From an uncultured Candidatus Saccharibacteria bacterium (GTDB lineage Bacteria > Patescibacteriota > Saccharimonadia > CAILAD01 > JADZBC01): a stretch of 58,848 bases of DNA. Where the stretch lies: positions 87,163-146,010 of the forward strand of contig CAYTBW010000001.1 of assembly GCA_964436255.1 (NCBI GenBank), in the 5' to 3' direction. Positions 33,885 through 53,215 of the stretch are shown in pieces. The translations under genes and the position numbers were made by a program. The notes below the pieces were generated by a model. That model was not told the DNA's origin. It worked only from the letters and a program-made list of their open reading frames with translations, and made no database searches. How positions within the stretch are numbered: position 1 is the stretch's first letter; the number at the start of each line of letters is the position of its first letter.

Positions 33885-35276
<1,392 letters not shown>

Positions 35277-37757: not shown

Positions 37758-38033
37758 ATGGGACTCGAAAACATCAGGGACTTGCTCGCTAAGCGGGTTG
37801 ACCAGCTAGATAGTGGGACTCACGATGTTATGACAGAGGCTAAGCTCGTGATAATGGAGCACATCAAAGTAGAGGTTCGGGTACTGAGCTACCAGAACGG
37901 TGCCTTACGGGTTTCAACCGAAGATTCTTCGGCCGCCAGCGAGATTCGATTGCAGGCCACTATCCTTCTCGCAGCAATCAACGAAAAGATAAAGCCGGAA
38001 GCAGTTAAGTTTCTCCGCGTTACAGTTCGCTAG
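37758..38033 (+). CDS. DUF721 (DciA-like) protein
   Basis: 91 aa immediately after recF, with a GALRVSTEDSSAASEIRL pattern like DUF721. Confidence 0.6.
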   Translation: MGLENIRDLLAKRVDQLDSGTHDVMTEAKLVIMEHIKVEVRVLSYQNGALRVSTEDSSAASEIRLQATILLAAINEKIKPEAVKFLRVTVR

Positions 38034-38725
38034 TACTTAGCGGCCTCAGCTGGTGCGTACTCTACCATATATCCATCGAGATCTATGCCTTTCGAATCGA
38101 GATACTCAAGAGCAGCTTTTTTGTAAGACTTCAAGAAAGCAGGATTGAGCGCTTGATCGTTTGTTAATAGTAGTGCAATGGTAATTTTTTCCGTCTTGCC
38201 TTCTGGCGTCGGCTCATCGAGCAATTGGTAGTTTATGTAGTATTGTGAAGTCGTTACGGGTAGGAACTTAATTGCTGGGTCGCTACCTTTCACCTTCACA
38301 TCTTCTGTAGTCGCTCCCGGGTCATAATTATAGGAGAACTCATATTTATACTCGTCGATCGAAGATCCATCTGTGGCGACAATGTTTACTAATTTAAAAC
38401 TATAGTTACTCCCCGAATTCATATTATTCAGCTGAAGGTACAGGTCCTTCCCCTCGACTTTACTCCCTGCAACTATACTACTCGCGACCTTAAGCTGAGT
38501 TGCCCTATCAAACCCAGCAAGCTCTTTGTTGAAAGAAATTACTACTGTGCGGGTAAGCGTAGTGATCGTCGACCCGCTCTCTGGGCTAGCTGAGGTTACT
38601 CTAAACACAGATGAAGAAAGCGCAGCCACACTGATTATGAATAAACCTAGGACAATAATAAGCGGCAGGATATAGCGCTTATATTGCTGGTAGATTTTTC
38701 CTCCCATAATTATTACTTCGCCCAT
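38030..38725 (-). CDS. Membrane-anchored Ig-like (Big_5/SbsA-like) protein, last gene of the T4SS-like operon
   Basis: N-terminal TM (ILPLIIVLGLFIISVAAL), then P.SGS.I....R.VVISFNKEL ... YSFKLVNIVATDGSSI, resembling bacterial Ig-like domains. The start is 38725 or 38707. Confidence 0.5.
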   Translation of the reverse strand: MGEVIIMGGKIYQQYKRYILPLIIVLGLFIISVAALSSSVFRVTSASPESGSTITTLTRTVVISFNKELAGFDRATQLKVASSIVAGSKVEGKDLYLQLNNMNSGSNYSFKLVNIVATDGSSIDEYKYEFSYNYDPGATTEDVKVKGSDPAIKFLPVTTSQYYINYQLLDEPTPEGKTEKITIALLLTNDQALNPAFLKSYKKAALEYLDSKGIDLDGYMVEYAPAEAAKY

Positions 38726-39945
38726 GGCTGGTTAAGTATATTTTGCGCAAACCCAAGTCTAATTGGCTTGTTCCCCGGAATGTCAGCCGGCCTCTCAAAC
38801 TTTGTTAGGAATACATACGTGCATTCCTCGAGTGAAGAGCTCGCCAGAATTACATCAAGCGTATTAGCCTTATATGCATCATTGAGTTCAAACCATAGAA
38901 ACTCTAACTGGACACCCAGGTCACTTGCTGGCTTGCCCGCCGCTGTAGCATAGTTTTCAAGATTCGTCCTACGCCCAAATGTCCACTGCGCTAAGCCATA
39001 ACCCTTATCCTTACGTGTTACTCCCTTCTCTTCTATACCGGGATTAAAGCCTGACTCAGCTTGCAGGTTGCCCATAATCCCAGCGATTTGAATTGGCGTC
39101 AGCCCCTTGCCCTTTAAGAAGTTGAATACCTTCTCGGCATTATCGTTACCACTCAAGTCCGTACCACTCGATATTGCACTTGAGCAGGATGGCCCAGAGG
39201 CTGTTGCGGTGGAAGTTGAAACACCTGCGAGGCCATCAGCCACGGTCTTTGCAAAGCCAGCCTTCCCAGTTGCTGTGAACGGGTGTACCCCTAGCCCATC
39301 ATCAGATATAAAATTGGGGTTCTTACTAACCACAGAAGCCCAATCAACCATAGTAAAGCCCTCCACTGTGGCTGATTTCCCAAGCGCTTCGTTTATCGGA
39401 GCCGTGTTGATATCAGCCGCATCACGCTTGGCGTTATTCACTCCAATATTCACCCAATATATCTTTGCTCCTGGAGCACCTGCCTTAATCCCTGCAACCG
39501 CCTTGGTTACATTAGCGCTGGACACACCACTATTTGTACCAAGTGCGATTACCGCAACCTTGGCGTCAGCCATCCGCGCCTTGTCTGCTGCAATGACCGA
39601 CACGCCATCTAACTCACCACTCCCTTCACTAAGTCTGCGGCTAGACTTTCCATTAATCTGGATGTCGGTAAAGCCCTTTTGTTTAAAAGCAGCTGTCAGT
39701 TCCGTGTTTGTACCCTCGGTAATCGAGTCCCCTACCATATATATTTTTCCGGTTTGGATTTGTGAATAGTCGGATCCTTGCTCTGCAACACAACTACCTA
39801 GATCCGTTGGGTCGTAGAAGGTTCTTAGTTCTATGTCTTTTCGCTCACCAGCAGTGAAAGCAAGTGCTGGGGGATAGGCACCTAATAGCGCGATAAAGGC
39901 GTAAATAGAAAGAGCTAATATGCTCCTAAATTTAATACATTTCAT
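38713..39945 (-). CDS. Secreted SGNH/GDSL hydrolase fused to a phage-tail-type lysozyme domain
   Basis: Signal peptide. GDSL block I in IYMVGDSITEG. C-terminal IAGIMGNLQAESGFNP...GYGLAQWTFGRR matches the phage tail lysozyme (Phage_lysozyme2-type) motif. Confidence 0.75.
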   Translation of the reverse strand: MKCIKFRSILALSIYAFIALLGAYPPALAFTAGERKDIELRTFYDPTDLGSCVAEQGSDYSQIQTGKIYMVGDSITEGTNTELTAAFKQKGFTDIQINGKSSRRLSEGSGELDGVSVIAADKARMADAKVAVIALGTNSGVSSANVTKAVAGIKAGAPGAKIYWVNIGVNNAKRDAADINTAPINEALGKSATVEGFTMVDWASVVSKNPNFISDDGLGVHPFTATGKAGFAKTVADGLAGVSTSTATASGPSCSSAISSGTDLSGNDNAEKVFNFLKGKGLTPIQIAGIMGNLQAESGFNPGIEEKGVTRKDKGYGLAQWTFGRRTNLENYATAAGKPASDLGVQLEFLWFELNDAYKANTLDVILASSSLEECTYVFLTKFERPADIPGNKPIRLGFAQNILNQPWAK

Positions 39946-40544
39946 AATTGCCTCTCTAGGTAATCATACACCTTCTTGGGCATCAGTTTGTCTACAGCCT
40001 GGTCGTCTAAAAATTCAGGGGCTGGCCCGGCCACAAGCCGCCATTTGCCACTAGACTTAGTAAATACAGCATAAAGGTCGGGTAGGTCAGACTGGTCGAT
40101 ATCGAACTGAACTACCTCCGCAACCGCCCATTTCCCGCCTTCCAAATAGGTTGGTTCTTTTACTTTATATTCAATCCCCGCTTGGTTTACAGATTTAGGT
40201 AGAGCCGCTGTAAGCGCGTCCGAAAGCTTTACCCTGAGCGGGACTTTTACCGAACTAGTCTCACTCGCATTAATGACTTTGTAGTATGTTTCGAAGCCAG
40301 CCTTCTCCACCTTGAGTTGGTAATCTTTAGCACGAAGCGCTAAGGATAGCTTATTACTGCTAACTGAGTACATCTTGCCGTTTAGGGTTAATGTCGTATT
40401 ATTCTCGGACATCAGGAAGGTGATTCTTTTTGACGTTGCTTGATATATGCCAAACCCTAGGAATACCAGGATAAAACTAATAACCAAGATAGAAATGAGT
40501 CTATTTTTTCGTAAGTAGGCTAAGATATCCTTCACCTCGGACAC
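39942..40544 (-). CDS. Membrane-anchored PEGA-domain protein
   Basis: TM (LISILVISFILVFLGFGIY), then TLNGKMYSV...YQLKVEKAGFETYYKVI (PEGA-like). The start is uncertain: GTG at 40544 or 40535, overlapping the upstream TGA. The track start 40613 lies inside the upstream gene. Confidence 0.5.
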   Translation of the reverse strand: MSEVKDILAYLRKNRLISILVISFILVFLGFGIYQATSKRITFLMSENNTTLTLNGKMYSVSSNKLSLALRAKDYQLKVEKAGFETYYKVINASETSSVKVPLRVKLSDALTAALPKSVNQAGIEYKVKEPTYLEGGKWAVAEVVQFDIDQSDLPDLYAVFTKSSGKWRLVAGPAPEFLDDQAVDKLMPKKVYDYLERQL

Positions 40545-43500
40545 CCTAAGCTTTCCGGCTGTACATACTCGTCGGATATTCTCACATGGAAATGGGTATC
40601 GTGCCCAGCCCAATATTTCATGACCCCCGGCTTACCTACAGATTTGGCATACTCGTTCACTGCCGTCTGTACCGCAGTGTCGTTGTGTAGAATCATCTTA
40701 ATAATGCCCGTGTCAATAAACCACTTGCCTAGTTGAATTGACTTGTTTCTATCGCCACTCACGTTTGCAGCAGAGCGGTCGGTAACGGTAATATCCACAT
40801 CTACACCTTTTTTGTGACTAACGTGGCCACTTCCTGCATTGAGGTCTCCAATACGCAGCGTACTACCTGGGTAAGTCTTCGCCCATTGTTGGGCCACCGT
40901 ATAGATTGTTCCAACTAATTCCTTGCTACCACAGCGGTCATTGCCAGAGAATACGTACAAACCAGCCGGATCACTTTCGGGCATGGTGTAATACCCCGTC
41001 CCATTGATGGCACCAGCCAGGTTTGGGGGATATGTAATTCCCTCTACAGTTGGACCGGATGCTGCTCCAGCTGAAGTCCCACCAGATGATTTGGCATATA
41101 TGCTGTCGTCTGGCTCGTCACTGCTTAGTCTGGCCCAAGCCCCGTACAAGTTGCGATGACCTTTATATATGGCATACTTCTTTGCCAGTGCCTTTTCTGT
41201 AGTTGGGCTCAACGCAGCGAGACGGATATTTGCTTTGGGGAGGTTGTATTTTGCAGATGATATGGAGTAGGCGCTGGCAAGGGTCCTGCCAACATTACTT
41301 TGCCGCATCATCTGGCATGCTTTGTCCTGCGATTCATCAAGAGTTTCCATGTCTGGGTAATATGTTTCCATACACTTATCCCAAGCTGCAAATGATGCAG
41401 CTACAGACTTTATAGTTTCGTCGTTCGCATAGGCAGGGTCCGCAACCTTCTTCTTTAAAGCCTCTATATAGCGAGCATTCTGAATTGCATCTTCAGTCTG
41501 TGGCACCCCTGCAGTGTCGATCTTCCAATACTCTCTGTCATCATCTCCCGCTGCAATAGCCTTGTTGCTCTCGCCGTAGCCAACATATGCAATAGCAGAG
41601 TTAATCTCCGCAAAAGCGCGGATTGGGTTGAGCATATTTACTGCATACCGAGTAGTCTTTTCTGCTACCTGCGTGGGTGTTGCTGTGGACTCAGCGGCCA
41701 TACGACTTGCTATCGACCTCGGATTGTCGGTATTAAGTAGTCTGAACGCTATACCATTAGTTCTGTCTCGATTACGTTTTAGGCTTTCTACATCTAAGCT
41801 CGCCTTGTTTCCTTCTGCGGCAGTTTCGTATGATCCGCCAAACAGACTAAAGGTGTAATCATAGGTTGAGGATTTTGCCCCAACCGTCATACGATTGAAA
41901 TTATCAGGACCGTCCTCCACACCGCTATTGCTAGCGTTGGATGTAACCTTGATAGTTCTAACTATTATGTCTTCAAGCGTCACTTTATCGGCTGATGAAT
42001 AGTACTGGGAGTTGTTCTTTTGAATATCTCGTTTTAGGTATGTAAGCGCATCATCGATGTCTTTCGAAATATCCTCCTTGGAAGGCCCTCCACCTCCGAA
42101 TAGACCGCTGAAGAAATCGCTAAAACTGCCGAAACCCCCATCATCTAGATTGTCTTGCTTACTACAGAGGCTTGTGAGCGAGTTCTTAATCCTGCCCTGA
42201 TCCTCTAGTTCCTCGAAATAGTTCTTAGTAAGCCCAAGCACTCTAGTAGGGATCGCCTCAGGGTCTATCTGTACCCCGGCAGACGAACCATTGATCTCTT
42301 GATTGTAGGCGCGTGAGGTAGAGAAATTATTGATTTTATACATATCGCCGTTTAGCTCGTCAGTAGATATCTCCCCGGCTACACCAGTATCGGCTAAAGT
42401 AAGAGCTTGGAATCCTGCTCGAGCAGAAGACTTAGCTCGATTTTGTTTATATTTCTTTACAGCATCTTTATCCTCGTTTAGTTTTTTGTAGAATACACAT
42501 GCAGCCTTAGTGTATTGGATCAGCCTTTTTTCGTATTTGGCTGAGTCGGTGTCAAGTGATTTTGGAATCTCCTCTACTTTATAGTCAACATCAATTTTCT
42601 CTGGCTGAGTACCGCATGAAAGATCATTTATAACTTTCTTTATACTTCTGTCTACCTTCGAGCCGGTCGGCCGGAAGTCTTTTATGCATTCTGTACTATT
42701 GCCATACGGACTATCCGGATTACTCCAGAGTCTCGTAAGAGATTTTTTATGAAGAGCCTCCTTAACCTCTTTCTTGTCCTTACCTTTCAATACCTCAGAA
42801 TCTTTCTTTTCAGCATAATTAAGGTTTACTTGCTTCTGCTGATTTATCTTACGCGCTTCTGGACTACGCATCATGGCTTCCATTACCGGATATTGCTCTA
42901 ATATGCAGGAATAAACACCAGGCGCCTTCATGTCTGCTGTTCTACCCTCTTTATCGACGACTTTATCTATCACACTGCGTCTTTGCCCGTCGTAAGACAC
43001 GACGGGCTTCGTAATTACTTTGTACTCGCAGTAACTTGATTTGAATTTGTTTCGAGATTTTTCATAATCTATTTTCGAGATAGTCTCTTCCAAAGAGCCG
43101 GGCTCCGGTTTTTGTCCTGGAGGGGCGGCAAGTGCGGCGCCTGGCTTGTAGTCTACTTCATACGGCATAGCACCAGTGATATAAGCGAGTGACTCACGAC
43201 TACTGCCTTCGCCAGCAGCTAGTCCGGCAGCGCTAAGCGCAAACCTGCGAAAACTCGAATCAGTAATCACCTTTTTAACGGCATCCCAAGGGTGGGTGGC
43301 GACATAAAAAAATACAAGAATAGGGATAGAGAGGAGAAGCAGGATTGCAAAACAGCCCAGTCCGCAGCCAACGCTAACCTTCTTTACGTCTACTCTTTTT
43401 ACAACCTCTTCAACCGCATCGCCAGCAGCTTTACCAACTGTAGCCCCGACACCTGTTGAGTCTAGGGCAGCTTGTGTACCTACATTAGCTGCCTTACCGG

Positions 43501-43819
43501 CCGCCGCCCTGGCTTGTTTTTCGGCCGCTCCTTGATCCTCTGGCCTTACAGTGCCGGGGGCATGATCCAAGGCCTTATTGGTGGCTTTTTTTGTGCCCGC
43601 CGAAACAGGGTCCGCAGATTTTGGCCCTTTTGAGCCGGGGGTGTGTCCTCCACTTCCAGCTTGACCTACGGGGGACTTTGGGAGATCTGATGCTTCGCGT
43701 AAGTTGCCGCTTCGTCCGGGTTTTACTGGTGCATCGTCGCGCACACGATTAGACATGTTGCTACTGGAGTTCGTCACACTCCCTGGCGTGTCATCATTTA
43801 ACTTGGCAGGACTTGCCAT
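40532..43819 (-). CDS. 1095-aa single-pass membrane protein with C-terminal LAS-type (MepA/M74- or M15-like) zinc peptidoglycan peptidase
   Basis: About 140 aa of Gly/Ala/Lys/Pro-rich N-terminal tail, one TM (CGLGCFAILLLLSIPILVFFYV), and about 750 aa of unassigned ectodomain. The C-terminus has GSGHVSHKKGVDVDI (H..D) and GHDTHFHVRI (HxH), ending LGCPR. Confidence 0.75.
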   Translation of the reverse strand: MASPAKLNDDTPGSVTNSSSNMSNRVRDDAPVKPGRSGNLREASDLPKSPVGQAGSGGHTPGSKGPKSADPVSAGTKKATNKALDHAPGTVRPEDQGAAEKQARAAAGKAANVGTQAALDSTGVGATVGKAAGDAVEEVVKRVDVKKVSVGCGLGCFAILLLLSIPILVFFYVATHPWDAVKKVITDSSFRRFALSAAGLAAGEGSSRESLAYITGAMPYEVDYKPGAALAAPPGQKPEPGSLEETISKIDYEKSRNKFKSSYCEYKVITKPVVSYDGQRRSVIDKVVDKEGRTADMKAPGVYSCILEQYPVMEAMMRSPEARKINQQKQVNLNYAEKKDSEVLKGKDKKEVKEALHKKSLTRLWSNPDSPYGNSTECIKDFRPTGSKVDRSIKKVINDLSCGTQPEKIDVDYKVEEIPKSLDTDSAKYEKRLIQYTKAACVFYKKLNEDKDAVKKYKQNRAKSSARAGFQALTLADTGVAGEISTDELNGDMYKINNFSTSRAYNQEINGSSAGVQIDPEAIPTRVLGLTKNYFEELEDQGRIKNSLTSLCSKQDNLDDGGFGSFSDFFSGLFGGGGPSKEDISKDIDDALTYLKRDIQKNNSQYYSSADKVTLEDIIVRTIKVTSNASNSGVEDGPDNFNRMTVGAKSSTYDYTFSLFGGSYETAAEGNKASLDVESLKRNRDRTNGIAFRLLNTDNPRSIASRMAAESTATPTQVAEKTTRYAVNMLNPIRAFAEINSAIAYVGYGESNKAIAAGDDDREYWKIDTAGVPQTEDAIQNARYIEALKKKVADPAYANDETIKSVAASFAAWDKCMETYYPDMETLDESQDKACQMMRQSNVGRTLASAYSISSAKYNLPKANIRLAALSPTTEKALAKKYAIYKGHRNLYGAWARLSSDEPDDSIYAKSSGGTSAGAASGPTVEGITYPPNLAGAINGTGYYTMPESDPAGLYVFSGNDRCGSKELVGTIYTVAQQWAKTYPGSTLRIGDLNAGSGHVSHKKGVDVDITVTDRSAANVSGDRNKSIQLGKWFIDTGIIKMILHNDTAVQTAVNEYAKSVGKPGVMKYWAGHDTHFHVRISDEYVQPESLGCPR

Positions 43820-43863
43820 GTGGGTTCGTTGCTCCTATTTGGTATTAGTGTAATTATACCGTA

Positions 43864-45756
43864 CTACGCTTGAGTTGTGTTGGCAGGTATTACAGGTGTA
43901 GTCTGTGCCTCTGGTGGCAACGCGGCTACATTAGCATCTACGGCGTCTTGCTGGGCCCGCTGCTGGTCGAGCATATGTTGAGGGTTCGTACTGATCAGCT
44001 GGGTTTCCATTGGTGAGGCCAATATGCGCAATATAATATGGCTTAGTCCGGCAAAGAATAGCCCCTCACCTACTGGAAACTGGCTAAGTCTGCTGCTTTC
44101 TTCACTTGTTAGCTTAAAGGTGTCGGCTACGATGTCGACTGCAGCAGGGTTCTGCTTGAGCAGAAGCTGTAAGGACGAGTTATTTACGATTGCACGGCCT
44201 AGTCGTGTGCTAAGGAAGTCTTCTACGTCCTGGGAGATTGTAGTGAGCCCCAGGAAGTATTTACGGGCTCTTTTTGCGATCGAGAACAAGAACATGGCAG
44301 AGTCCTGGTACTGCATGAGCTGCCACGCTTCGTCTACTACCAGTATTCTCTTACGGCGATCTGTTTTTACTCGATTCCATATGTAGTTCAGTACAATGTA
44401 CATTCCAATAGGCCGCAGTTCGTCTTCTAGGTCACGAATGTTAAATACAACGAACCGATTATTAAGCTGCACGTTTGATTGTTGTGAAAAGATTCCCGAG
44501 AATGTTCCTTCAGTAAAACGGCGCAAGCGAGCAGCGAGTCCCTGGCCAGTGCCCGGCATACTAAGGAGCTCATTGTATAGGTCGGCCATTACCGGCGGCT
44601 GCGCACGGTGGGTCAGCGGGTCATTTGTGATCCCCTTTTTGGCATAGGTGTTGATCAGCGCTATGTCCATGTCGGCTTCTTCTGTAGGGCTCATGTCTCC
44701 AGCCATGAGCCGCAGCAGGCCGTGAAGCATTATGATGTTTGCTCTAAGTGCGTTATCAGCTTCCTCTGGATCTACAGTCTGAGGCAGGTCGAACGGATTA
44801 ACTCGAGTATTGCTTGCGAGTGAAAGGTGTAGGTAACTGCCCCCCACTGCATCACAAAGAGTCTTATACTCGTTCTCTGGGTCAATTATTACGACCTCCG
44901 TACCCATCATGAGTGAGCGCAAGCATTCTAGCTTAACTGCGAAACTCTTTCCTGCACCAGATTTTGCGAATACTGTCATGTTGGCGTTTTCTAAACTGAA
45001 TCGATCAAATATGACCAGACCGTTGTTGTGACGGTTGATGCCATACATAATCCCGTCTTCTTGGCTGAGCTCGGCCGTGGTGAACGGGAAGGTAGAGCTT
45101 AGTGCTCCAGTGTTCATATTTCGATAGACATTTAACTGGTCAAGACCCATGGGGATGGTGGAGTTAAAACCTTGTTCCATTTGGATAGTGGCCGGTTTTG
45201 TGTAGATGAGGCTTTGGCCCAACATGCTTTCAATCTTCTTGCCCACCAGGTTGAGTTCATCTAGATCCTTACCATAAATGGTAATGTATAGGCCAAGTCG
45301 GAAAAAGCGATCAGACCCAACTTGCAGGCTGTCACGTAATTCCTCCGCATCCTGAATAGCTGCTTCGAGTCCTGGGTCTCGAACTTTGCCCTTTTCTTGA
45401 TTGATCGTGTAGTTCGCCTCTAACTGACCTACCTTCTTCTTTAGATTGTCGAGCACAATCTTACTTTCAACCGGAATGATGTTTAAGCTGATGTCTATAA
45501 TCTCATCAATGTTAATAAGTGGTGAGAGCCAGCCGGTATAAAGTGTACGGGGGTAGCCGAACACAAACAGCGTGCGGGCAAGACGCTTCCCTATTTTTAT
45601 GTGGTCGTTCACGATTTCGATGGATGAAGGGGCAATTATGTCTCGAAGACTCACTACACCTTCCCGGTATATCTTTTCGGCCTCAGCTTGCATAGCTGCC
45701 CGTCGGTCGATTTCTGCTTGGACCTTAGGGTCGATCCGAGGTTGCTTAACGGCCAT
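43864..45756 (-). CDS. virB4: VirB4/TrbE-type type IV secretion ATPase
   Basis: 630 aa. Walker A FAKSGAGKSF, Walker B ILVVDEAW, and the N-terminal VirB4-type domain (LFVFGYPRTLYTGWLSPL). Confidence 0.9.
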   Translation of the reverse strand: MAVKQPRIDPKVQAEIDRRAAMQAEAEKIYREGVVSLRDIIAPSSIEIVNDHIKIGKRLARTLFVFGYPRTLYTGWLSPLINIDEIIDISLNIIPVESKIVLDNLKKKVGQLEANYTINQEKGKVRDPGLEAAIQDAEELRDSLQVGSDRFFRLGLYITIYGKDLDELNLVGKKIESMLGQSLIYTKPATIQMEQGFNSTIPMGLDQLNVYRNMNTGALSSTFPFTTAELSQEDGIMYGINRHNNGLVIFDRFSLENANMTVFAKSGAGKSFAVKLECLRSLMMGTEVVIIDPENEYKTLCDAVGGSYLHLSLASNTRVNPFDLPQTVDPEEADNALRANIIMLHGLLRLMAGDMSPTEEADMDIALINTYAKKGITNDPLTHRAQPPVMADLYNELLSMPGTGQGLAARLRRFTEGTFSGIFSQQSNVQLNNRFVVFNIRDLEDELRPIGMYIVLNYIWNRVKTDRRKRILVVDEAWQLMQYQDSAMFLFSIAKRARKYFLGLTTISQDVEDFLSTRLGRAIVNNSSLQLLLKQNPAAVDIVADTFKLTSEESSRLSQFPVGEGLFFAGLSHIILRILASPMETQLISTNPQHMLDQQRAQQDAVDANVAALPPEAQTTPVIPANTTQA

Positions 45757-46805
45757 TATTGAGTACCTCCTTGAGGTGGTTGCTGTGGCGCTACCACTGG
45801 CCTAGGTATTTGAACTGCCTGACCGGGCTGGGCTTGTTGCTGGGGCTGTGGGGGCACAGCTGCCGGCGCAGTTTGCTGTTGCACCTGCGGTGCCGGCGCA
45901 GTCAAAGGTGTCACGGAAGCGGCTGGAGGCCGAACTGCCGCTGCAGGCTGGGTCTGCTGGGTGCTGACTACCGGCGCTGTTCTGCGCGCAGCCGCAAACA
46001 TGTCTTCGGGCTCGGCAACTTTTTGGGCTGGACCGTGCGGCGCAAGGGGCTCTCCGCGGCGGCCGACAACAGGCGCACTCAGTTCGTCCATACCTACGAG
46101 CGGTTGGTTTTGGGCCTCATCAATATTATACGATCCGTAGTAGAGCTCAATAAGCTCTTGAGTGGTTAGAACAGCCGCGCGAACGCCTATTTGAGCCAAG
46201 CCCTGAGCGACGATGTTGGTTCGCTGAATAAGGTCTCGTTTATGCTTCTCAAAGTCTTCGCTACTCTCGATTACGTCTTCGCTTTGCTTCATGAGTCCAG
46301 TTATCTTGCTTATTATATTATCTTTACTGACTGCTTGAATGTAGTAAGGAATTACAACGTAGAACGATTTCGACATGATGTTCACGTCTTCCAGGAGTCC
46401 ACGGATATTGAATATATAGTCTTCCATAAGCCCGGCCAAGAGTTGGTTTCCTTGTTCTGCCTGCAATCCCTCGAGGCGGCCAAGATAGTTGTCTAGATCA
46501 ATTTTGCGTGAACGAATAATGATTTGCACTGGAAAGTGCAGACCGTTCAGGAAGCCCTGGTAGGCGTACTCTATGGCGCTTTGCTCCCTTGAGCTTTTTA
46601 AGTCAAAGTTCACGGCCGATGCCATAATTACCATGCGCAATGATCCGTCACGCATAACTACAATGTTGTCGCGGATTTCCGAGAACATTAAATGGTTTTG
46701 AGTGCTTGTGCGTTGATCCTTAGCATTTTTGGGCGGCGTTACAGAGGCCAAGGCTTGTCGCTGTTGGTCGGTAATTTGTGGATTGGGTTGAGACGGCTGA
46801 GCCAT
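45756..46805 (-). CDS. T4SS-associated protein resembling the VirB4 N-terminal domain, with Pro/Gln-rich tail (no ATPase motifs)
   Basis: 349 aa. IRDNIVVMRDGSLRMVIMASAVNFDL...FLNGLHFPVQIIIRSRKIDLDNYL parallels the N-domain pattern of the adjacent VirB4. TAATG overlap with virB4. The C-terminal ~85 aa are P/Q/A-rich. Confidence 0.45.
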   Translation of the reverse strand: MAQPSQPNPQITDQQRQALASVTPPKNAKDQRTSTQNHLMFSEIRDNIVVMRDGSLRMVIMASAVNFDLKSSREQSAIEYAYQGFLNGLHFPVQIIIRSRKIDLDNYLGRLEGLQAEQGNQLLAGLMEDYIFNIRGLLEDVNIMSKSFYVVIPYYIQAVSKDNIISKITGLMKQSEDVIESSEDFEKHKRDLIQRTNIVAQGLAQIGVRAAVLTTQELIELYYGSYNIDEAQNQPLVGMDELSAPVVGRRGEPLAPHGPAQKVAEPEDMFAAARRTAPVVSTQQTQPAAAVRPPAASVTPLTAPAPQVQQQTAPAAVPPQPQQQAQPGQAVQIPRPVVAPQQPPQGGTQ

Positions 46806-46847
46806 AGATACAATTACACCCGGTGTATTATTTGCTGGATAGGTGGA

Positions 46848-47681
46848 CTAGCGAATTTGCGTGCTCTGTCCTTGCTGTAGAATGTTCTGGGGACTAACCT
46901 GGTTAGCTAGTTGCTGTACAGATACAACACCACTGCTCTGAGCAGCTCTTTGTAGTATAGCATTTTGGGTGGCTGGTTGCGAAGGTGCTTGTGCTTGAGC
47001 AACAGGTTGGCCTGAAGGCGCAGTTGCAGCTTTTTGCATGTTCGCTATGGCTTGTGCTTTTACATTTGCCCCGCTCGTGGTCAACATCTCTCCTACCGCA
47101 ACTGCCTGAGGATTGTGCTGCATGTCTAACATATCGGCTCTAGGCGCAGTTACTTTATTGGCAATAATTTCGGAGGCGACTTGAGTAGCCTCTGGGGTTA
47201 CCACGCGATTGCTTAGAGCACTGCCGGCTACATTGGCATCTGCCGACTGCAGTTCCTCGCCCTTTGGTATGCGTCCCCGACTATCCACTATAGTTGCAAG
47301 TTTGCGCAGCTCGCCGCGGACCTCCGTAGCACTTGGCATTACTACTTCCTCTGTCTCCGGCTTCTTTACTTCCTCGCGCACCACGACTTTGGACTGGTCC
47401 TTAAGCCAACTGCGTTTGCGCGGTACTATGGCAAAGCGAATCATGGCTATGAAGTACGTTTCGAAGCTTTGGCCCTCGCGGCGGATTAACCCAAGTGCAA
47501 GCAACGGTCCAGAAACTGGCAGCATGAAGAGTAGTGCTATTGGCGGTGCTACTGCAAGCACCCGCCAGCATATAAAACCCCACCCTATAGCTATAACGAC
47601 ATATATGAACTGCTTGATCGTCAGTGGGCCCAGGATAGTATCTTCGGCTTCTACATTTTGCGGTACTTTATACTGGCCCAT
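46848..47681 (-). CDS. PrgI family (VirB3-like) T4SS membrane protein with long Gln/Ala-rich tail
   Basis: YKVPQNVEAEDTILGPLTIKQFIYVVIAIGWGF followed by a second TM, as in PrgI/VirB3-like proteins. TAATG overlap with the upstream gene. Confidence 0.7.
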   Translation of the reverse strand: MGQYKVPQNVEAEDTILGPLTIKQFIYVVIAIGWGFICWRVLAVAPPIALLFMLPVSGPLLALGLIRREGQSFETYFIAMIRFAIVPRKRSWLKDQSKVVVREEVKKPETEEVVMPSATEVRGELRKLATIVDSRGRIPKGEELQSADANVAGSALSNRVVTPEATQVASEIIANKVTAPRADMLDMQHNPQAVAVGEMLTTSGANVKAQAIANMQKAATAPSGQPVAQAQAPSQPATQNAILQRAAQSSGVVSVQQLANQVSPQNILQQGQSTQIR

Positions 47682-49888
47682 TATTCAAAACTATCTCCTG
47701 GCATAGGGGCGCCATGGTTTACTGTGAGAACTGGTCCGGCTGGTCCTGCTGGTGGTCTCCCAGGTCCTGCTGGTGGTGCTGGTGGAGTTCCGGGCCCTCC
47801 TGCTGGCGGAGTAGGTCCTGGTCCTGCTGGTGGTGCTGGTGGAGTTCCGGGCCCTCCTGCTGGCGGAGTAGGTCCTGGTCCTGCCGCATGAGCAGCACGA
47901 GCATCATTAATTTTTCTGACAACCTTGCCATAATCTGTGTCTGCCCCACTTGCATCAACAAGGGGCGCTGCAGCAACCGTAGATCCATAATCCCGATCGC
48001 CATTGGCGTCAGCGGCAGGCATCGGTATATAGCCGAGCTGCGCAGCTTTCTCGTTAATTGCCTTATAGTCTGGGAGCAAGCCTTTTGCTGCTCGTGATTC
48101 TTGCTTGTCAACTTCTTCGGAGAGCTTCTTTTTAAGAACTTTCTTTGCTGGTTCAGCGAGTTTACTGTTCCCTCGCGCTATGTCTCCAAGCTGGCCATCA
48201 TTAAGCCCCTTGGTCCATGATTCCTCCTCGTTCTTAATTCTTGCTTGAGCTCTACCAGTCCTCTTTAGCGCTTCTTTTTTACCCAAACTTGAGATTGGAC
48301 CAAGGGATGTGGGGATTCTGCCGCCAGATCTCTTGTCGATCTGGTCCTTCAGGCCGCCCTCTTTGCTCCATTTGTCTTTTGCAGCCGACTTCCCTTGCTT
48401 GGCTCCCCAACTGGCTAGCTTGCCACCTGTAGCAGCCATAAGTCCGCCACTCCACTTGAACGCCTTCGGAACCATCAAGAAACCAATGAACGGCACAAGC
48501 GCACCAATTATCTGAATAGTCGCGGCGTTGCTGCTAGATGTCATTACAGTGCCAATAAAGGCAGAACCAGAGGTTATGGCCATGATTATTGGATACATCA
48601 TGACGAGTTTTACAAGATTGGTCGACCATGTTTTGAATAACTTCTCGGTATTTGGGAGTACTTTTGCCGCAAATGCTAGGGGCGCTACTAGAACTAGAAC
48701 GTAAAGCCCCGCAAGTCGTATAGCTAGCACCGCCAACACTATAAGGATCGAAATGATAATGATAATAATCATTGTTATTGCAACGAACACTACAAGGGCT
48801 CCTGCTACAGCGGTTGCAGTTAATGTAGCTGCTGCCGCTGCCCCTCCTGCAGTACCGGCAGCGGCAGCACTCGATAACTGGAGAAAGAATGCAGAAATCG
48901 TTGCCCCAAGCACATTCCCGAGCTCTATGAATGCCCCAGTTATAAAGAATGCAAATTGCGACAAGATTATTGCAGCTACAAGCCTGGGCACCATTTTCTT
49001 TAGAGCATAGCTATCAAGCCCAATGGAAAGGCCGTTGGCGAAGATTATTATTAAAAATATAATCGCATAGAATGCATTTGCAATATTCAGCAGAGATTGG
49101 CTGGCATCTCGGAGGTCTTGATTATTTAGACTGTTAGTATTGATGTCCAACAGTTCTATTAGCCATTCGTTAAGTTGCTTCACCACGTCTATTAATGCCT
49201 CTTGTATAGGGCACAGTACAAAGCCAAGACCACCCTTGTCACACTTCTTGACCTCTACATACGAATCAAAACCAGATTTGTATGTAATGTTGCTGACAGA
49301 TCTTATTGGATCATCCCCTACATCACAAGATATCGCCTTGTCGCCCTTTGCGAACATCTCGATATTACAAATACCGCTGTCTTCAGGTGCTTTGTCGTGG
49401 TTGTCCTGGCCGCCGACATCATTATCTGAGACTCCTTGATCGGCAGTAATCGTTTTTGACTCTGCTATTGGCAGAGTGCTGACTACAACGGTCGAGTAGT
49501 CCCCAGAAGCTGAGTTTGGAAAATGTAGCCAGCCGTATGCATCGGTGGTCGCCCCATCATCAGGCCTGAATACGTCATGCTCTGCATTGGCTGATAGTTG
49601 TGGGTCAAACCAATAAGACTTCTCCCCTTCTTTTAAGTCGTTTGACTCATTTGCTATTGCGTTACGCCAACAAAAAACTTCTGCCGAGCTCCTGAATTCA
49701 CAGAAGAATTCAATGTCAGTAGGATTAACACTTCCGTCTGCCGTGACATTATCGTATTTAGTAGGAGTATTGGGGTTTGCTGCTAGAGCCGGACCCGCGG
49801 AAATTACAAAAAAAGCCATCGCAAAAATAGCGACAAGACCTGCCCGACTCATGAGGCGAATAATTGCAGATTTATTTAATCGAGGCAT
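47681..49888 (-). CDS. VirB6/TrbL-like polytopic T4SS channel protein with large ectodomain and Pro/Gly-rich repeat tail
   Basis: Start taken at MPRLNKS (49888). Signal/TM, about 270-aa ectodomain, at least 6 TM helices, Lys-rich then AGPGPTPPAGGPGTPPAPP x2 tail. Confidence 0.7.
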   Translation of the reverse strand: MPRLNKSAIIRLMSRAGLVAIFAMAFFVISAGPALAANPNTPTKYDNVTADGSVNPTDIEFFCEFRSSAEVFCWRNAIANESNDLKEGEKSYWFDPQLSANAEHDVFRPDDGATTDAYGWLHFPNSASGDYSTVVVSTLPIAESKTITADQGVSDNDVGGQDNHDKAPEDSGICNIEMFAKGDKAISCDVGDDPIRSVSNITYKSGFDSYVEVKKCDKGGLGFVLCPIQEALIDVVKQLNEWLIELLDINTNSLNNQDLRDASQSLLNIANAFYAIIFLIIIFANGLSIGLDSYALKKMVPRLVAAIILSQFAFFITGAFIELGNVLGATISAFFLQLSSAAAAGTAGGAAAAATLTATAVAGALVVFVAITMIIIIIISILIVLAVLAIRLAGLYVLVLVAPLAFAAKVLPNTEKLFKTWSTNLVKLVMMYPIIMAITSGSAFIGTVMTSSSNAATIQIIGALVPFIGFLMVPKAFKWSGGLMAATGGKLASWGAKQGKSAAKDKWSKEGGLKDQIDKRSGGRIPTSLGPISSLGKKEALKRTGRAQARIKNEEESWTKGLNDGQLGDIARGNSKLAEPAKKVLKKKLSEEVDKQESRAAKGLLPDYKAINEKAAQLGYIPMPAADANGDRDYGSTVAAAPLVDASGADTDYGKVVRKINDARAAHAAGPGPTPPAGGPGTPPAPPAGPGPTPPAGGPGTPPAPPAGPGRPPAGPAGPVLTVNHGAPMPGDSFE
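47763..47884. repeat. Perfect 57-bp tandem repeat (2.1 copies) inside the VirB6-like gene
   Basis: 47763-47819 and 47820-47876 are identical base for base, followed by an 8-nt partial third unit. Each unit encodes 19 aa of the Pro/Gly tail. Confidence 0.9.
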
Positions 49889-49953
49889 TATACAGTGATT
49901 ATAGTATAATAGCCCCAGTAAGGTACAGTGCATAAGCTTAATAATGGTTGATA
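49889..49953. promoter_or_regulatory. Divergent promoter region between the T4SS operon and the pilin array
   Basis: A minus-strand TATAAT (49903-49898) lies 9 nt upstream of the VirB6-like ATG. A plus-strand TATAAT (49905-49910) lies 43 nt upstream of the first pilin ATG. Confidence 0.35.
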
Positions 49954-50310
49954 ATGAAGATTAAAACACAGTTTGCAAAATTTACAGCAGCCGCCACTAT
50001 GGCTACTATCCTTCTTTCCCCCGGCGCTAGCAAGGCGGCCACAGTAGACAACTGTGGAACTTTCTTGCCATCGGAGTTATGTACAGACGACATCTATTCG
50101 CTACTTGGGACGATAGCAAATTACATGGTTGGTTTCTTCAGCCTACTGTTTGTACTCGTGATAGTTATAGCTGGAGCGCAAATGGCATCTGCAGGAGATA
50201 GTCCTGATAGGCTTAAGGCAGCAAAGAGCAGACTAATGAATGCCATTGTTGGGCTAGTGCTCTTACTGAGCTTTCGAGCGATAATTTATGTATTTGGGTT
50301 AACGGGCTAG
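49954..50310 (+). CDS. VirB2/TrbC-like T4SS pilin paralog 1
   Basis: Signal peptide (…LSPGASKAA), Cys pair (DNCGTFLPSELC), then hydrophobic helix - AGAQMASAGDSPDRLKAAK - hydrophobic helix. Confidence 0.7.
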   Translation: MKIKTQFAKFTAAATMATILLSPGASKAATVDNCGTFLPSELCTDDIYSLLGTIANYMVGFFSLLFVLVIVIAGAQMASAGDSPDRLKAAKSRLMNAIVGLVLLLSFRAIIYVFGLTG

Positions 50311-50317
50311 GAGGAAC

Positions 50318-50578
50318 ATGCAACTTTTTGACGGAACAGCTAAAGGGCTAGACGACATCGTGCCAACTATTACAAATGTAACTAACTTTGTCCTGGGCTT
50401 AGTGGGAGCATTGGCTGTTATATTCATTATCATAGGGGGCATTCAGCTTTCAATCTCGGCAGGTAACCCGCAGGGCCAGGAAAAGGCGAAGAAGACGATC
50501 ACAAATGCAATTGGTGGACTCATCCTTGCTATTTGCGCCGGGGTTATAGGCAACTTTGTTGTCGGCATTTTTAAGTAA
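50318..50578 (+). CDS. VirB2/TrbC-like T4SS pilin paralog 2 (no signal peptide)
   Basis: AGGAGG SD. Helix - GGIQLSISAGNPQGQEKAKK - helix architecture. 86 aa. Confidence 0.7.
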   Translation: MQLFDGTAKGLDDIVPTITNVTNFVLGLVGALAVIFIIIGGIQLSISAGNPQGQEKAKKTITNAIGGLILAICAGVIGNFVVGIFK

Positions 50579-50592
50579 TTATTCCCACCGCC

Positions 50593-50621
50593 TTTACGCC
50601 GTTAATAACTCGGCATATAAT
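50593..50621 (+). promoter_or_regulatory. Promoter for pilin paralog 3 (TTTACG-N17-TATAAT), probably leaderless
   Basis: -35 at 50593-50598 and -10 at 50616-50621. The ATG at 50630 is only 8 nt after the -10, with no SD. Confidence 0.4.
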
Positions 50622-50629
50622 CTGAACAT

Positions 50630-50986
50630 ATGATAAAAGCATTCACCAAAAAAATCAGCTTACTTCTACCTGCTATAGTCGCTTTCGCTAGTCCTCTTGT
50701 TGCAAAAGCCGCTGCACTACCAAACACTCTTGAAATCGACAGTTTAGATGGCACCCCAGATAATGCGGAGTCGATCATCCCGCTCATTACCAATACCTTA
50801 CTAACTATAGCGGGTATAATTTCTGTAATCATGATCATTGTAGGCGGCATTATGTACTCTCTGTCTGCCGGGGATTCCGGTAAGGCTACTAAGGCCAAGG
50901 ACACAATCCTCTACTCCGTAATCGGTCTTGTGATTACGATGCTTGCCTACGCAATCGTTACGTTCGTAACCGGCCTATTAGTTTAA
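50630..50986 (+). CDS. VirB2/TrbC-like T4SS pilin paralog 3
   Basis: Signal peptide (…ASPLVAKAA). Helix - GGIMYSLSAGDSGKATKAKDTILY - helix. Confidence 0.75.
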   Translation: MIKAFTKKISLLLPAIVAFASPLVAKAAALPNTLEIDSLDGTPDNAESIIPLITNTLLTIAGIISVIMIIVGGIMYSLSAGDSGKATKAKDTILYSVIGLVITMLAYAIVTFVTGLLV

Positions 50987-50998
50987 CAGCTCGAGTTA

Positions 50999-51027
50999 TT
51001 GTCAAACCAGGTGGACTCGTATACAAT
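50999..51027 (+). promoter_or_regulatory. Promoter for pilin paralogs 4-5 (TTGTCA-N17-TACAAT)
   Basis: -35 at 50999-51004 and -10 at 51022-51027, followed by AAGGAG SD (51044-51049) and the ATG at 51061. Confidence 0.5.
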
Positions 51028-51060
51028 CTAAGCATAATTGTTTAAGGAGAATTTATTAAA

Positions 51061-51414
51061 ATGGTAAAAGAAATCACCACGAAGGTCGGCCTAGGCTTAA
51101 CCGGAGTAATGCTATCAGCAGGAACCGTTCTTGCTGCAAACCCTGACGCCCAAGAAGGTATCAACGCTGCTCAGGGAAACCTTGAGACAACTAGCCTAAC
51201 AGATTCGATCGCCGGAATTACAAACCTAATGATTACTATCATTGGTATTGTATCTGTGATCATGCTTATCATCGGCGGCTTCCGCTACGTGCTCTCTGGT
51301 GGCGACCAAAAAGGTACTACGGCTGCTAAGGATACCATTCTGTACGCGATCATCGGTGTAGTAGTTGCACTCCTTTCCTACTCCATCATGAACTTCGTAA
51401 TCAACCAGCTCTAA
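51061..51414 (+). CDS. VirB2/TrbC-like T4SS pilin paralog 4
   Basis: Signal peptide (…GTVLAA). Helix - GGFRYVLSGGDQKGTTAAKDTILYA - helix. Has its own promoter and strong SD. Confidence 0.8.
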   Translation: MVKEITTKVGLGLTGVMLSAGTVLAANPDAQEGINAAQGNLETTSLTDSIAGITNLMITIIGIVSVIMLIIGGFRYVLSGGDQKGTTAAKDTILYAIIGVVVALLSYSIMNFVINQL

Positions 51415-51420
51415 AAAAAC

Positions 51421-51786
51421 ATGCAACTTACGCGAGTAACATCCGTAACGTCAGGTATCGCGCTCTTTGCAGCAGTAAATGCTCAGAGGGCGCTAGCTGC
51501 GTGTAGCCTTGATGGCGGTGCAGCAGCCGGCGCCGAGTGTGCCCAGGGCAGCTCTACCACTACTGATCTAATGGGGTCTATTGGCACAATTACTAACACG
51601 CTCATTGTGGCCATCGGTATTATCTCGGTCATTATGATTGTGATTGGTGGTTTGCGCTACGTATTATCTGGTGGCGACCAAAAGGGCACAACCGCGGCTA
51701 AGGACACAATTCTGTACGCAGTAATCGGCATGGTTGTAGCCTTGCTTGCCTATTCGATTGCCAACTTTGTAATTGGCATTGTTTAG
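51421..51786 (+). CDS. VirB2/TrbC-like T4SS pilin paralog 5
   Basis: Signal peptide (…AQRALAA), Cys pair (ACSLDGGAAAGAEC). Its core RYVLSGGDQKGTTAAKDTILYA is identical to paralog 4. Confidence 0.8.
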   Translation: MQLTRVTSVTSGIALFAAVNAQRALAACSLDGGAAAGAECAQGSSTTTDLMGSIGTITNTLIVAIGIISVIMIVIGGLRYVLSGGDQKGTTAAKDTILYAVIGMVVALLAYSIANFVIGIV

Positions 51787-51804: not shown

Positions 51805-51835
51805 AAAAGCGCCCCGGTAAATTCGGGGCGCTTTT
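51805..51835 (+). terminator. Rho-independent terminator after the pilin array
   Basis: AAAAGCGCCCCG - 7-nt loop - CGGGGCGCTTTT, a perfect 12-bp stem with a T run. Confidence 0.8.
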
Positions 51836-51868: not shown

Positions 51869-53215
51869 ATGTTAGTAATGGACTTACTAAGCCGGCACAA
51901 AGCCACCGTTATATCAATTACGATCTCCTTGGCCATTCTGGTCGGCCTCGCCCTGCTCATTCCCTCCGAACCGCAGAATGCCATATCCGTGGAAGGAATC
52001 GAAGAATCTGGTTCGCGGTTTGAATTTCCTACTGAGCCGATCACCCTTACCTACTGGCGCACCGTTGATGGCGTTGAGCCCTTTAGTGAGATAATTGCTG
52101 ACTACAAGAAGCTTCACCCTAATGTCACGATCAAACTTAGCAACTTAAAGGCTGCCGATTACGATAAGCAGCTAGCCGAAGCTGCAAAGGCCGGCAAGTT
52201 GCCAGATTTATACACGATAAAGGATGACTGGCTCCCCCGCTACGATGACTATAATGCCCCTGCTCCAAGTACGGTGTATACTGCCAATGAATTTGAGGAT
52301 ACCTTCGTGGACGTGGCGTCCAAAAAGTTAGTAGAAGGCGAGGTAGTGGACGGTTTGGCTTTTGGGGTATCTACCTTGGGCCTGTTTTACAACCAAGATC
52401 TATTGAGTAAGGCCGGCTATAAGAACCCGCCTAAAACCTGGGATGAGCTCATGAACATGAGTCGGAAGATAACCCAGCGTTCTGGCGCCGACATTACCCT
52501 GGCCGGAGCCGCGCTCGGAAATAGCTCTGTTACAGACTACACTTCGATCCTTTCTGTCCTCATGCAGCAAAACGGCGCCGTGATGACGAACAACCCCCCT
52601 ACTCAAGCGACGTTTAATAGGCCCGATGCAGCTGGCTATGCGTCGGGAGCTAAAGCAACCAACTTCTTCACAAGCTTTGCCCGAGAAAAGAGCGAGAACT
52701 ACGCGTGGAATAGCAAGTTGGGAAGCTCGCTCGATGCCTTCAAGGCCGGAAAGGCCGCAATGATAGTCGAGTATGCATACCGCGCGCCAGAAATCGATGC
52801 CGCAAGTCCAGAGCTTAAGTACAAGATGACATCCCTGCCACAGGTTGATACCGGCAACCCTATCAACCAGGCGGAATTTTGGGTCGAGCAAGTCAACAAG
52901 GATAGTAAGCAGTCAGAGGTGGCCTGGGACTTTCTAAGATTCGCCTCTACCCGCACTCAGTTGAACCGCTACAGCATTGCTACCTACCGCCCCGCGGCAC
53001 GTAAAGATCTTATCAATCTGCAGTCAGAGGACAAATACCTCGGTCCCTTTGCAGACCAGCTAAGCACAGCAAAAACTTGGTACAAGGGCAACAGCTATAA
53101 TGTTGATGGGATATTCTCTGACATGATAAGCGCTGTTTTGGCAGGCGGAGACTCGCAATCTGCAGTAGACACTGCAGCCACCCGTACCACCCAGGAGATT
53201 GTTACGAGTAAGTAG
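51869..53215 (+). CDS. ABC transporter extracellular solute-binding protein (family 1, sugar type), with no adjacent permease genes
   Basis: 448 aa, N-terminal anchor (ISITISLAILVGLALL). Its overall pattern is that of carbohydrate SBPs (…DLYTIKDDWLPRY…, …AMIVEYAYR…). Confidence 0.8.
   Translation: MLVMDLLSRHKATVISITISLAILVGLALLIPSEPQNAISVEGIEESGSRFEFPTEPITLTYWRTVDGVEPFSEIIADYKKLHPNVTIKLSNLKAADYDKQLAEAAKAGKLPDLYTIKDDWLPRYDDYNAPAPSTVYTANEFEDTFVDVASKKLVEGEVVDGLAFGVSTLGLFYNQDLLSKAGYKNPPKTWDELMNMSRKITQRSGADITLAGAALGNSSVTDYTSILSVLMQQNGAVMTNNPPTQATFNRPDAAGYASGAKATNFFTSFAREKSENYAWNSKLGSSLDAFKAGKAAMIVEYAYRAPEIDAASPELKYKMTSLPQVDTGNPINQAEFWVEQVNKDSKQSEVAWDFLRFASTRTQLNRYSIATYRPAARKDLINLQSEDKYLGPFADQLSTAKTWYKGNSYNVDGIFSDMISAVLAGGDSQSAVDTAATRTTQEIVTSK

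Follow-up and report, generated by a model that had tools for sequence, protein, structure and literature searches.

Organisation of the locus

What is a type IV secretion system (T4SS) for that lies close to a probable replication origin, has no relaxase or coupling protein at hand and combines wall hydrolases with five pilins? This question is raised by a locus (38030-51786) in a 58,848-nucleotide stretch of DNA, here called the window, from an environmental member of the Saccharimonadia. The locus is the orthologue of the published origin-adjacent chromosomal T4SS SEML1_0004-0019 of Southlakia epibionticum ML1; it is real and complete, but an already described system in an already described context. 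Its parts and their order are conserved among relatives, and conjugation functions are lacking nearby. We consider it rather probable that the system serves obligate host association, as a contact structure and a conduit that works without a coupling protein, and is not a conjugation apparatus.

The open reading frame (ORF) list contains eight head-to-tail ORFs on the minus strand, from 49933 down to 38030, and five small ORFs on the plus strand (49948-51786). Most likely, the VirB6-like gene starts at the ATG at 49888, which yields 735 amino acids (aa) instead of the 750 aa of its ORF, the first pilin gene, pil1, at the ATG at 49954 (118 aa), and the PEGA gene at the GTG at 40544. With these starts, the locus consists of a machinery operon of eight coupled genes (38030-49888, minus strand, ~12 kb) and a pilin operon of five genes (49954-51786, plus strand), with the following features (TM, transmembrane helix):

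38030-38725, minus strand: Ig/prealbumin-like membrane-anchored protein, 231 aa
38713-39945, minus strand: secreted SGNH/GDSL esterase-lysozyme fusion with a signal peptide, 410 aa
39942-40544, minus strand: PEGA-domain membrane-anchored protein, 200 aa
40532-43819, minus strand: bitopic giant protein, 1095 aa, with a disordered cytoplasmic N-terminus, one TM (145-179), an ectodomain of ~770 aa and a C-terminal LAS peptidase (~950-1095)
43864-45756, minus strand: VirB4 ATPase of the MPF-FATA / CD1110 family, 630 aa
45756-46805, minus strand: TrsD-like protein, 349 aa, with a soluble VirB4 N-domain-like region (~40-225) and a P/Q-rich tail
46848-47681, minus strand: PrgI/VirB3-like protein, 277 aa, with an N-terminal TM hairpin and a long Q/A-rich cytoplasmic tail
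47681-49888, minus strand: VirB6/TrbL-like polytopic membrane protein, 735 aa
49889-49953, no strand: divergent intergenic region between the two operons, 65 bp
49954-50310, 50318-50578, 50630-50986, 51061-51414 and 51421-51786, plus strand: five VirB2/TrbC-like pilin genes (pil1 to pil5)
51805-51835, plus strand: G+C-rich terminator hairpin with a T run, read from the sequence, closing the pilin operon

A first reading made from the sequence alone (the sequence-only reading) had described the eight-gene operon with this part list, and family and fold searches support its assignments. Its gene boundaries held in part. The overlaps coupling the genes are present, with TAATG at the VirB6/PrgI and TrsD/VirB4 junctions, GTGA at giant/PEGA and ATGA at PEGA/esterase, all read directly from the DNA, but the three starts given above had to be corrected. 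The revised starts of VirB6 and pil1 leave a divergent control region of 65 bp. It contains overlapping TATAAT-like boxes, for which we infer a promoter role; a promoter consensus scan of the window stayed at chance level, with 21 sites found and 20.9 expected. The consensus scan also did not list the hairpin after pil5, although it is obvious by eye.

The ATPase and its membrane partners

VirB4 scores 372 bits against the NCBIfam model of the CD1110-family VirB4 proteins (NF045971, cut-off 325) and matches the TraG P-loop family PF19044 with an E-value of 2e-27 in the Pfam scan. Its best relative in the PDB is Thermoanaerobacter VirB4 (4AG5, 1.2e-53). The PrgI/VirB3-like protein is matched by PF12666 (PrgI) at 1.1e-15, likewise in the Pfam scan.

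For the 349-aa protein the local Pfam scan, which included the copies of a near-identical strain described below, gave no match, and searching the PDB with its sequence profile returned only low-complexity or chance matches. It is, however, recognised by the NCBIfam TrsD/TraD model (1.5e-5) and by the N-terminal part of the NCBIfam mycoplasma VirB4 profile (6.5e-4), and carries a precomputed PF26593 TraC-like annotation. An AlphaFold2 (AF2) model built from 34 homologues (mean predicted confidence, pLDDT, 59) has a folded core at ~40-225, and its best 14 fold matches in the PDB are all R388 TrwK/VirB4 (E 5e-5 to 6e-3, probability 0.99-1.00). An hhalign comparison of the TrsD and VirB4 profiles was in register yet non-significant (E 0.068, probability <1%), so the TrsD claim rests on the NCBIfam match and the fold search; the likeness to a VirB4 N-domain noted earlier is upheld by both. 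TrsD and VirB4 both align to one 894-position VirB4 profile from mycoplasma integrative and conjugative elements (ICEs), the former over positions 94-233 and the latter over 285-893. As the two are colinear on this single profile, a longer VirB4 may have been split into the adjacent genes, or the two may have been fused in mycoplasmas.

The VirB6-like protein is predicted to consist of a signal anchor, a variable, Cys-containing ectodomain of ~220 aa, five to six TMs and a cytoplasmic tail. Neither the local Pfam nor the NCBIfam scan matched it, and its sequence profile found only low-complexity or chance matches in the PDB. Nearly all homologues carry precomputed PF19590 (TrbL_3) annotations, two of them also PF04610 (TrbL/VirB6), and the top PDB fold matches of its AF2 model (pLDDT 71) are R388 TrwI/VirB6 (probability 0.84-0.98). 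The earlier naming as a VirB6-like channel protein therefore has modest support, from homologues and from weak fold matches, but not from a direct family match. A perfect 57-nucleotide (nt) tandem repeat of 2.1 copies (47763-47884) encodes a Pro/Gly-rich stretch in its cytoplasmic tail; the sole difference from the VirB6 of the near-identical strain is a 7-aa indel at this repeat.

P/Q/A-rich low-complexity cytoplasmic tails recur along the operon, in the N-terminus of the giant (43819-43385), TrsD (45756-46055), PrgI (46848-47380) and VirB6 (47681-48400). VirB4 has a shorter one, and the sequence of all these tails is not conserved among relatives.

The pilin array

The five divergently transcribed VirB2/TrbC-like pilins of the sequence-only reading were confirmed: all match the T4SS pilin family PF18895 (6e-15 to 9e-10), with weaker TrbC/VirB2 matches, and all show the two-TM hairpin topology of VirB2. 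Pilins 2-5 are only 21-25% identical to pil1, while pil4 and pil5 are close to each other. A Sec-type signal peptide is present in four of the five and missing from pil2. The best curated match of every pilin is NCBIfam NF045849, the Mbov_0395 pilin-like conjugal transfer protein of mycoplasma ICEs (5.6e-12 to 9.4e-6). Its cut-off of 40 bits is passed by two of them, pil2 (45.2) and pil3 (41.1), and the 86 aa of pil2 (50318-50578) correspond in length to the 80-position profile. The NCBIfam VirB2/TrbC models matched none of the five. Because these pilins match a family from a monoderm lineage, the idea that they were borrowed from diderm systems is tempered; a monoderm conjugative lineage already has related small two-TM subunits, and a diderm source would not be obligatory.

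McLean 2020 proposed for such an array the arrangement of pertussis toxin, with the small proteins as secreted toxin subunits instead of pilins (PMC7427843), and the signal peptides of four of the five proteins would suit this model. It leaves unaccounted the one protein that has no signal peptide, and above all the matches of all five to T4SS pilin families (PF18895, TrbC, NF045849) together with their VirB2-type hairpin. We rejected it on the family matches and the hairpin, and regard it as very improbable.

Wall hydrolases and anchored proteins

The C-terminus of the giant matches Peptidase_M74 (7.6e-6) and MepA (6e-6). These matches are weak when taken alone, but the LAS assignment is backed by the protein family, in which 25 of 33 members carry a LAS-type match (VanY in 13, M74 in 7, M23 in 5); judged by these profiles, the C-terminal module is interchangeable among LAS families. 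In a search of 1.84 billion representative proteins, the ectodomain (40970-43282 of the window) was matched by just 39 clusters at 50% identity, and by this count it is an orphan, lineage-restricted family. It has several invariant Cys and Gly positions. With the sequence profile of the giant, the PDB search found no relative, only low-complexity or chance matches.

In the secreted fusion protein, the esterase domain matches GDSL_2 (PF13472) above the cut-off (1.2e-8), and the lysozyme domain matches PF18013 (4.9e-37) and the N-terminal domain of the phi29 tail-tip enzyme gp13 (PDB 3CSR, 1.9e-13), with a conserved ES motif. The gp13 structure pairs a lysozyme with a LAS-group metallopeptidase, as does this locus. 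Unlike in gp13, the two activities reside here on separate proteins of a secretion machine, not of a virion, and an SGNH esterase is added.

The PEGA protein, the positional counterpart of SEML1_0005, passes the cut-off of PF08308 narrowly (8e-5; 22.9 bits, cut-off 20.8). The Ig-like protein matches Big_5 below the cut-off (0.0046); it is the positional counterpart of SEML1_0004, for which a prealbumin-like fold is given in Table S2 of Wang 2023 (PMC10633639). The wall-degrading activities and accessory parts of the sequence-only reading thus stand for the lysozyme, GDSL_2, LAS and PEGA domains, while the Ig-like domain falls short of its cut-off.

Chromosomal setting and missing conjugation functions

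The genes dnaA-dnaN-recF-dciA abut the locus, and the region of dnaA is the likely origin:

33778-35320, no strand: probable oriC, with dnaA (assigned by Pfam) and two clusters of DnaA-box-like 9-mers

Of the 19 near-consensus DnaA boxes in the window, six lie in two groups that flank dnaA (33778-33838 and 35277-35320), which would place the locus 3-4 kb from the origin. The chromosomal, origin-proximal setting proposed earlier is thereby supported, and the flanking genes recF, a solute-binding protein (SBP) gene and hsp20 were identified as such. The machinery operon (38030-49888) runs toward the probable oriC and thus meets a rightward replication fork head-on, the pilin genes are transcribed in the direction in which that fork moves, and both orientations are kept in related loci and in S. 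epibionticum.

From left to right, the window contains a 28-kb surface-polysaccharide cluster, a VanW-like gene, mnmE, jag, yidC, rnpA, dnaA-dnaN-recF-dciA and the T4SS, followed by an orphan sugar-type SBP gene, hsp20, comF, tRNA-Ser, a bestrophin-like gene, DsbD/thioredoxin genes and a pirin gene. The family scans covered every ORF of at least 110 aa in these 58.8 kb, and no family match was obtained for a VirD4/TcpA coupling protein (T4CP), a relaxase, VirB11, VirB8-10 or an integrase, in agreement with the sequence-only reading. For a VirB8-like protein of the NTF2 fold, there is no ORF at the position of SEML1_0012 and no family match in the same scans, and Pfam gave no matches to a VirB7-10 core as in ComB. 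Far from the locus, the genome may still contain a VirD4-like gene, as does that of S. epibionticum.

These results bear on one alternative, an ordinary or decayed ICE with the genes for its relaxase, coupling protein and integrase immediately beyond the edge of the window. Such an element could be suspected from VirB4, which belongs to the CD1110 family of conjugative ATPases, and from the tRNA-Ser gene 2.8 kb to the right of the locus. Yet neither an integrase nor a relaxase turned up in the 38 kb to the left and the 7 kb to the right, a search for att-like direct repeats or ICE boundaries flanking the locus found none, and many species, as well as ML1, have the locus at the same place, between recF/dciA and hsp20-comF-tRNA-Ser. 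Among Patescibacteria, only 15 relaxase genes were counted near virB4, compared with 2,474 virB4 genes (PMC12102498). The fixed chromosomal site and the lack of att-like repeats effectively exclude an ICE, and we rejected this explanation on these grounds and on the missing integrase and relaxase.

Conservation among related loci

An identical VirB4 is encoded on the JGI metagenome contig L001 (JGI 3300056788, Ga0558717_01662), which represents a near-identical strain: 19.5 kb align at 94.8% nt identity, with 59 gaps. Its dnaA, SBP and esterase-lysozyme genes are broken into fragments, probably by assembly indel errors and not by pseudogenisation. Beyond this strain, VirB4 is 72-92% identical in 33 species-representative genomes labelled Candidatus Saccharibacteria or Saccharimonadia.

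To compare gene order, the window proteins were searched by tblastn against related loci, and counts refer to 18 loci, each from another species and no shorter than 19 kb. The common order is comF-hsp20-(SBP)-pilins-VirB6-PrgI-TrsD-VirB4-giant-...-lysozyme-Ig-(dciA)-recF-dnaN-dnaA. TrsD and PrgI are present in all 18 loci, the giant and four to six pilins in 17 each; on the flanks, recF, hsp20 and comF are kept in 14 each and the SBP gene in 13. Two loci (L006 and L007) are rearranged and lie away from dnaA. The sequence-only reading had named a synteny survey as one check; besides these loci, which keep the order, a survey of Patescibacteria has also been published (PMC12102498).

Identity falls from VirB4 (72-92%) to TrsD (49-72%) and PrgI (35-74%); the lowest values, ~25-50% in most genomes, are those of VirB6, the giant and the pilins. 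This gradient would fit fast-evolving exposed parts.

The orphan SBP gene (51869-53215), of family 1, separates the pilins from hsp20; it has neither a permease gene nor an ATPase gene in its vicinity and is missing in S. epibionticum.

Relation to published systems

The suspicion of the sequence-only reading that the locus might not be new proved right. In TM7x and throughout the Saccharibacteria, McLean 2020 described a conserved region that combines VirB4, VirB6 and PrgI with an 'array of 4-6 small secreted proteins' (PMC7427843). Wang 2023 annotated SEML1_0004-0019 of S. epibionticum ML1 by structure, noting pilins and no recognisable coupling or relaxase proteins (PMC10633639). Transposon sequencing (Tn-seq), another check named by the sequence-only reading, had already been done in this species: all T4SS genes are essential for epibiotic growth except the NTF2-like SEML1_0012 (PMC10633639). 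Quinonero-Coronel 2025 surveyed the 2,474 Patescibacterial virB4 genes and found a FATA-type VirB4, TrsD, PrgI, VirB6, 2-11 VirB2-like pilins at ~25% identity, peptidase and lysozyme genes downstream of virB4, and dnaA/dnaN nearby, concluding that this machinery was recruited to serve other roles (PMC12102498). A 2025 FEMS review regards it as a new branch of the superfamily (PMC12857230), and elsewhere its function is called 'completely unknown' (PMC11665869).

From dnaA to tRNA-Ser, a comparison of gene tables shows gene-for-gene colinearity between the window and SEML1_0001-0022. The likeness to the ML1 and TM7x regions extends from dnaA-dnaN-recF, the Ig-like, PEGA and lysozyme proteins and a giant of ~1100 aa with a DD-peptidase/LAS end to VirB4, the TrsD-like, PrgI and VirB6-like proteins, the divergent pilins, hsp20, comF and tRNA-Ser, and in both a relaxase and a coupling protein are missing from the cluster. 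There are differences in detail. One VirB6-like gene (735 aa) is found here and two in ML1 (998 and 1088 aa); the non-essential NTF2/VirB8-like SEML1_0012 has no counterpart; and five pilins stand against six. The lysozyme protein carries an SGNH esterase module, where that of ML1 combines another lysozyme-like domain, a glucosaminidase, with a cysteine-proteinase module. Unlike ML1, the window has dciA after recF and the orphan SBP gene between the pilins and hsp20.

From the Patescibacteria clade of PMC12102498, nothing essential differs, and the window is one more member. It shares with that clade the FATA-type VirB4 with an adjacent TrsD, PrgI and VirB6, the divergent pilins, hydrolases just downstream of virB4, a dnaA-dnaN-recF site, and no nearby relaxase or T4CP. 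Two points refine the published picture, namely the best curated match of the pilins to a monoderm mycoplasma-ICE family and the colinearity of TrsD and VirB4 on one long mycoplasma VirB4 profile.

Among monoderm conjugative systems, the closest parallels are C. difficile CTn2/CD1110, pCF10 Prg/Pcf, pGO1 Trs and the mycoplasma ICEs. Like them, the locus has a VirB4 that passes the CD1110 equivalog cut-off, a pGO1-type TrsD, a pCF10-type PrgI, a VirB6 homologue and wall hydrolases downstream of virB4. Unlike these MPF-FATA systems, it has no relaxase, coupling protein, recognisable VirB8-like protein or surface adhesin, is chromosomal and vertically conserved, and encodes a multi-gene pilin array. 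Across the 58.8-kb window and the related loci, the marks of a conjugative MPF-FATA system or ICE (relaxase and VirD4/TcpA, integrase and att, variable presence) were not seen. The non-conjugative role put forward by the sequence-only reading is thus supported and is the same as the published view (PMC10633639, PMC12102498), not a novel one.

H. pylori ComB and archaeal Ced also work without a relaxase or coupling protein. Ced, from the work of Beltran and co-workers in 2023, is said to unite a VirB2-like pilin, a VirB6-like protein and a VirB4-like ATPase. Here, however, the CedB model gives only a weak match in the window (35.9 bits, cut-off 700), and neither a CedB-type ATPase nor the VirB7-VirB10 core of ComB is found. 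A further difference from DNA-import systems is that the essential role in ML1 is independent of ComEC.

Proposed role in host association

In the R388 structure obtained by Mace and co-workers in 2022, VirB2, VirB3, VirB4 and VirB6 reportedly form the set implicated in pilus biogenesis. As the locus encodes this subset, we read it as a pilus-building machine. VirB4 hexamers would be tethered to the membrane by the PrgI/VirB3 hairpin and by TrsD, an adaptor resembling the N-terminal domain of VirB4. On a VirB6 platform, they would pull the two-TM VirB2-like pilins out of the membrane, and the extracted pilins would polymerise on VirB6 into a tube aimed at the host. The bitopic giant would position its LAS zinc endopeptidase outside the membrane, and the SGNH-lysozyme fusion plausibly strips O-acetyl groups and then cuts the glycan strands. 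Together, these enzymes may open the wall of the epibiont, that of the host or both, giving the tube access to the host, while the anchored PEGA and Ig-like proteins may scaffold and line the passage through the wall.

What passes through the tube, if anything, is a separate question. The locus contains no coupling protein, the distant T4CP of ML1 is non-essential (PMC12102498) and a comEC deletion in ML1 is viable (PMC12857230). These findings argue against classical, coupling-protein-dependent substrate transfer as the essential function, and the last one shows that ComEC-dependent DNA uptake is not the essential role either. Our preferred reading is that host material is exchanged or taken up, not that effectors are injected in the classical, coupling-protein-dependent way. 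Electron microscopy (EM) of another cultivated Patescibacterium revealed tubular connections to its host, along with acquisition of host RNA (bioRxiv 10.64898/2026.06.21.733656); by analogy, an uptake role is attractive but unproven. In its most specific form, this would be a feeding tube that needs no coupling protein: a VirB2-type pilus built by VirB4 and TrsD on VirB6, for which the LAS peptidase and the esterase-muramidase clear the way through the host wall, and which draws macromolecules of the host cytoplasm, RNA or nucleotides and perhaps lipids, into the epibiont. Nutritional import has been voiced as speculation before (PMC11665869, PMC12857230 and a 2026 OT8 preprint), and we put this version forward tentatively, as possible rather than probable.

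Transport in the other direction was proposed by Wang 2023, who wrote that the system 'may instead export proteins' (PMC10633639). Effectors would then be injected or released into the host bacterium, with the pilus as a docking device only, in the manner of Bordetella Ptl, Brucella VirB or the Xanthomonas X-T4SS. Protein exporters without a T4CP are known, Ptl and Brucella VirB among them (PMC12102498), and wall hydrolases fit a machine that breaches a target cell. On the other hand, there is no coupling protein to recruit cytoplasmic substrates, and no candidate effector or immunity genes occur in or beside the conserved locus, whose neighbours are the SBP gene, hsp20, comF and replication genes. 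We judge effector export to be unlikely, yet worth keeping in view.

The same part list could also build an organelle that transports nothing, in which the pilins form an attachment fibre and the hydrolases remodel the contact zone. The locus does correspond to a pilus-biogenesis subset, and divergent pilin paralogues and fast-evolving ectodomains would suit the recognition of host surfaces. Saccharibacteria, however, already attach by means of type IV pili and dedicated adhesins (PMC10633639); moreover, VirB2 pili are hollow tubes, and the connections seen by EM in the related organism reach the host cytoplasm. Adhesion and wall remodelling as the sole function thus appear improbable to us.

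Several points weigh against a host-contact conduit as proposed here. The pilus made of these pilins is putative, and neither a VirB5-like tip protein nor a VirB8-like protein was recognised in the window. The fold match of VirB6, the presumed platform, is weak (E 0.014-0.3, TM-score 0.3-0.4). The substrate of the esterase is only inferred, the direction of transport rests on indirect arguments, and the absence of a coupling protein applies to the 58.8-kb window.

Other features of the window

The surface-polysaccharide cluster (1-28036) encodes many GT1/GT2/GT4/GT11 transferases, Wzy, an ABC-2 exporter, a GDP-mannose dehydratase and acyltransferases. Inside it lies a gene for a 622-aa protein with Ig-like and B-lectin domains (24457-26325); an LGFP-repeat protein is encoded in a G+C-rich patch at 3457-4542.

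A structured element of ~130-270 nt with an identical 53-nt core occurs at 28170-28431 (plus strand) and 3048-3182 (minus strand), one copy upstream of the VanW-like gene and one upstream of a GT4 glycosyltransferase gene. Its predicted RNA fold has a z-score of -3.3, and no match was found in Rfam. A third copy lies between hsp20 and the SBP gene on the contig of the near-identical strain (L001, 2226-2484). As the same site is empty in the window, the element looks insertion-polymorphic or mobile.

Significance

The system matters, as it is conserved across a huge uncultured radiation and essential in the single species tested. To this the window adds another environmental example and opens no new question. 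Its additions are minor: the mycoplasma-ICE match of the pilins, the colinearity of TrsD and VirB4 with the mycoplasma VirB4, a lineage-restricted giant with interchangeable LAS modules and, relative to ML1, the single VirB6, the missing VirB8-like gene and the esterase module on the lysozyme protein. The fixed parts are VirB4, TrsD, PrgI and the core of the ectodomain of the giant; the variable ones are VirB6 copy number, presence or absence of a VirB8-like gene, hydrolase modules and pilin number, and this list may help the choice of targets in cultured models. What the machine transports is the important question, one for such models rather than for this window. If the tube does feed the epibiont, it would be the first bacterial T4SS with an essential role in nutritional import.

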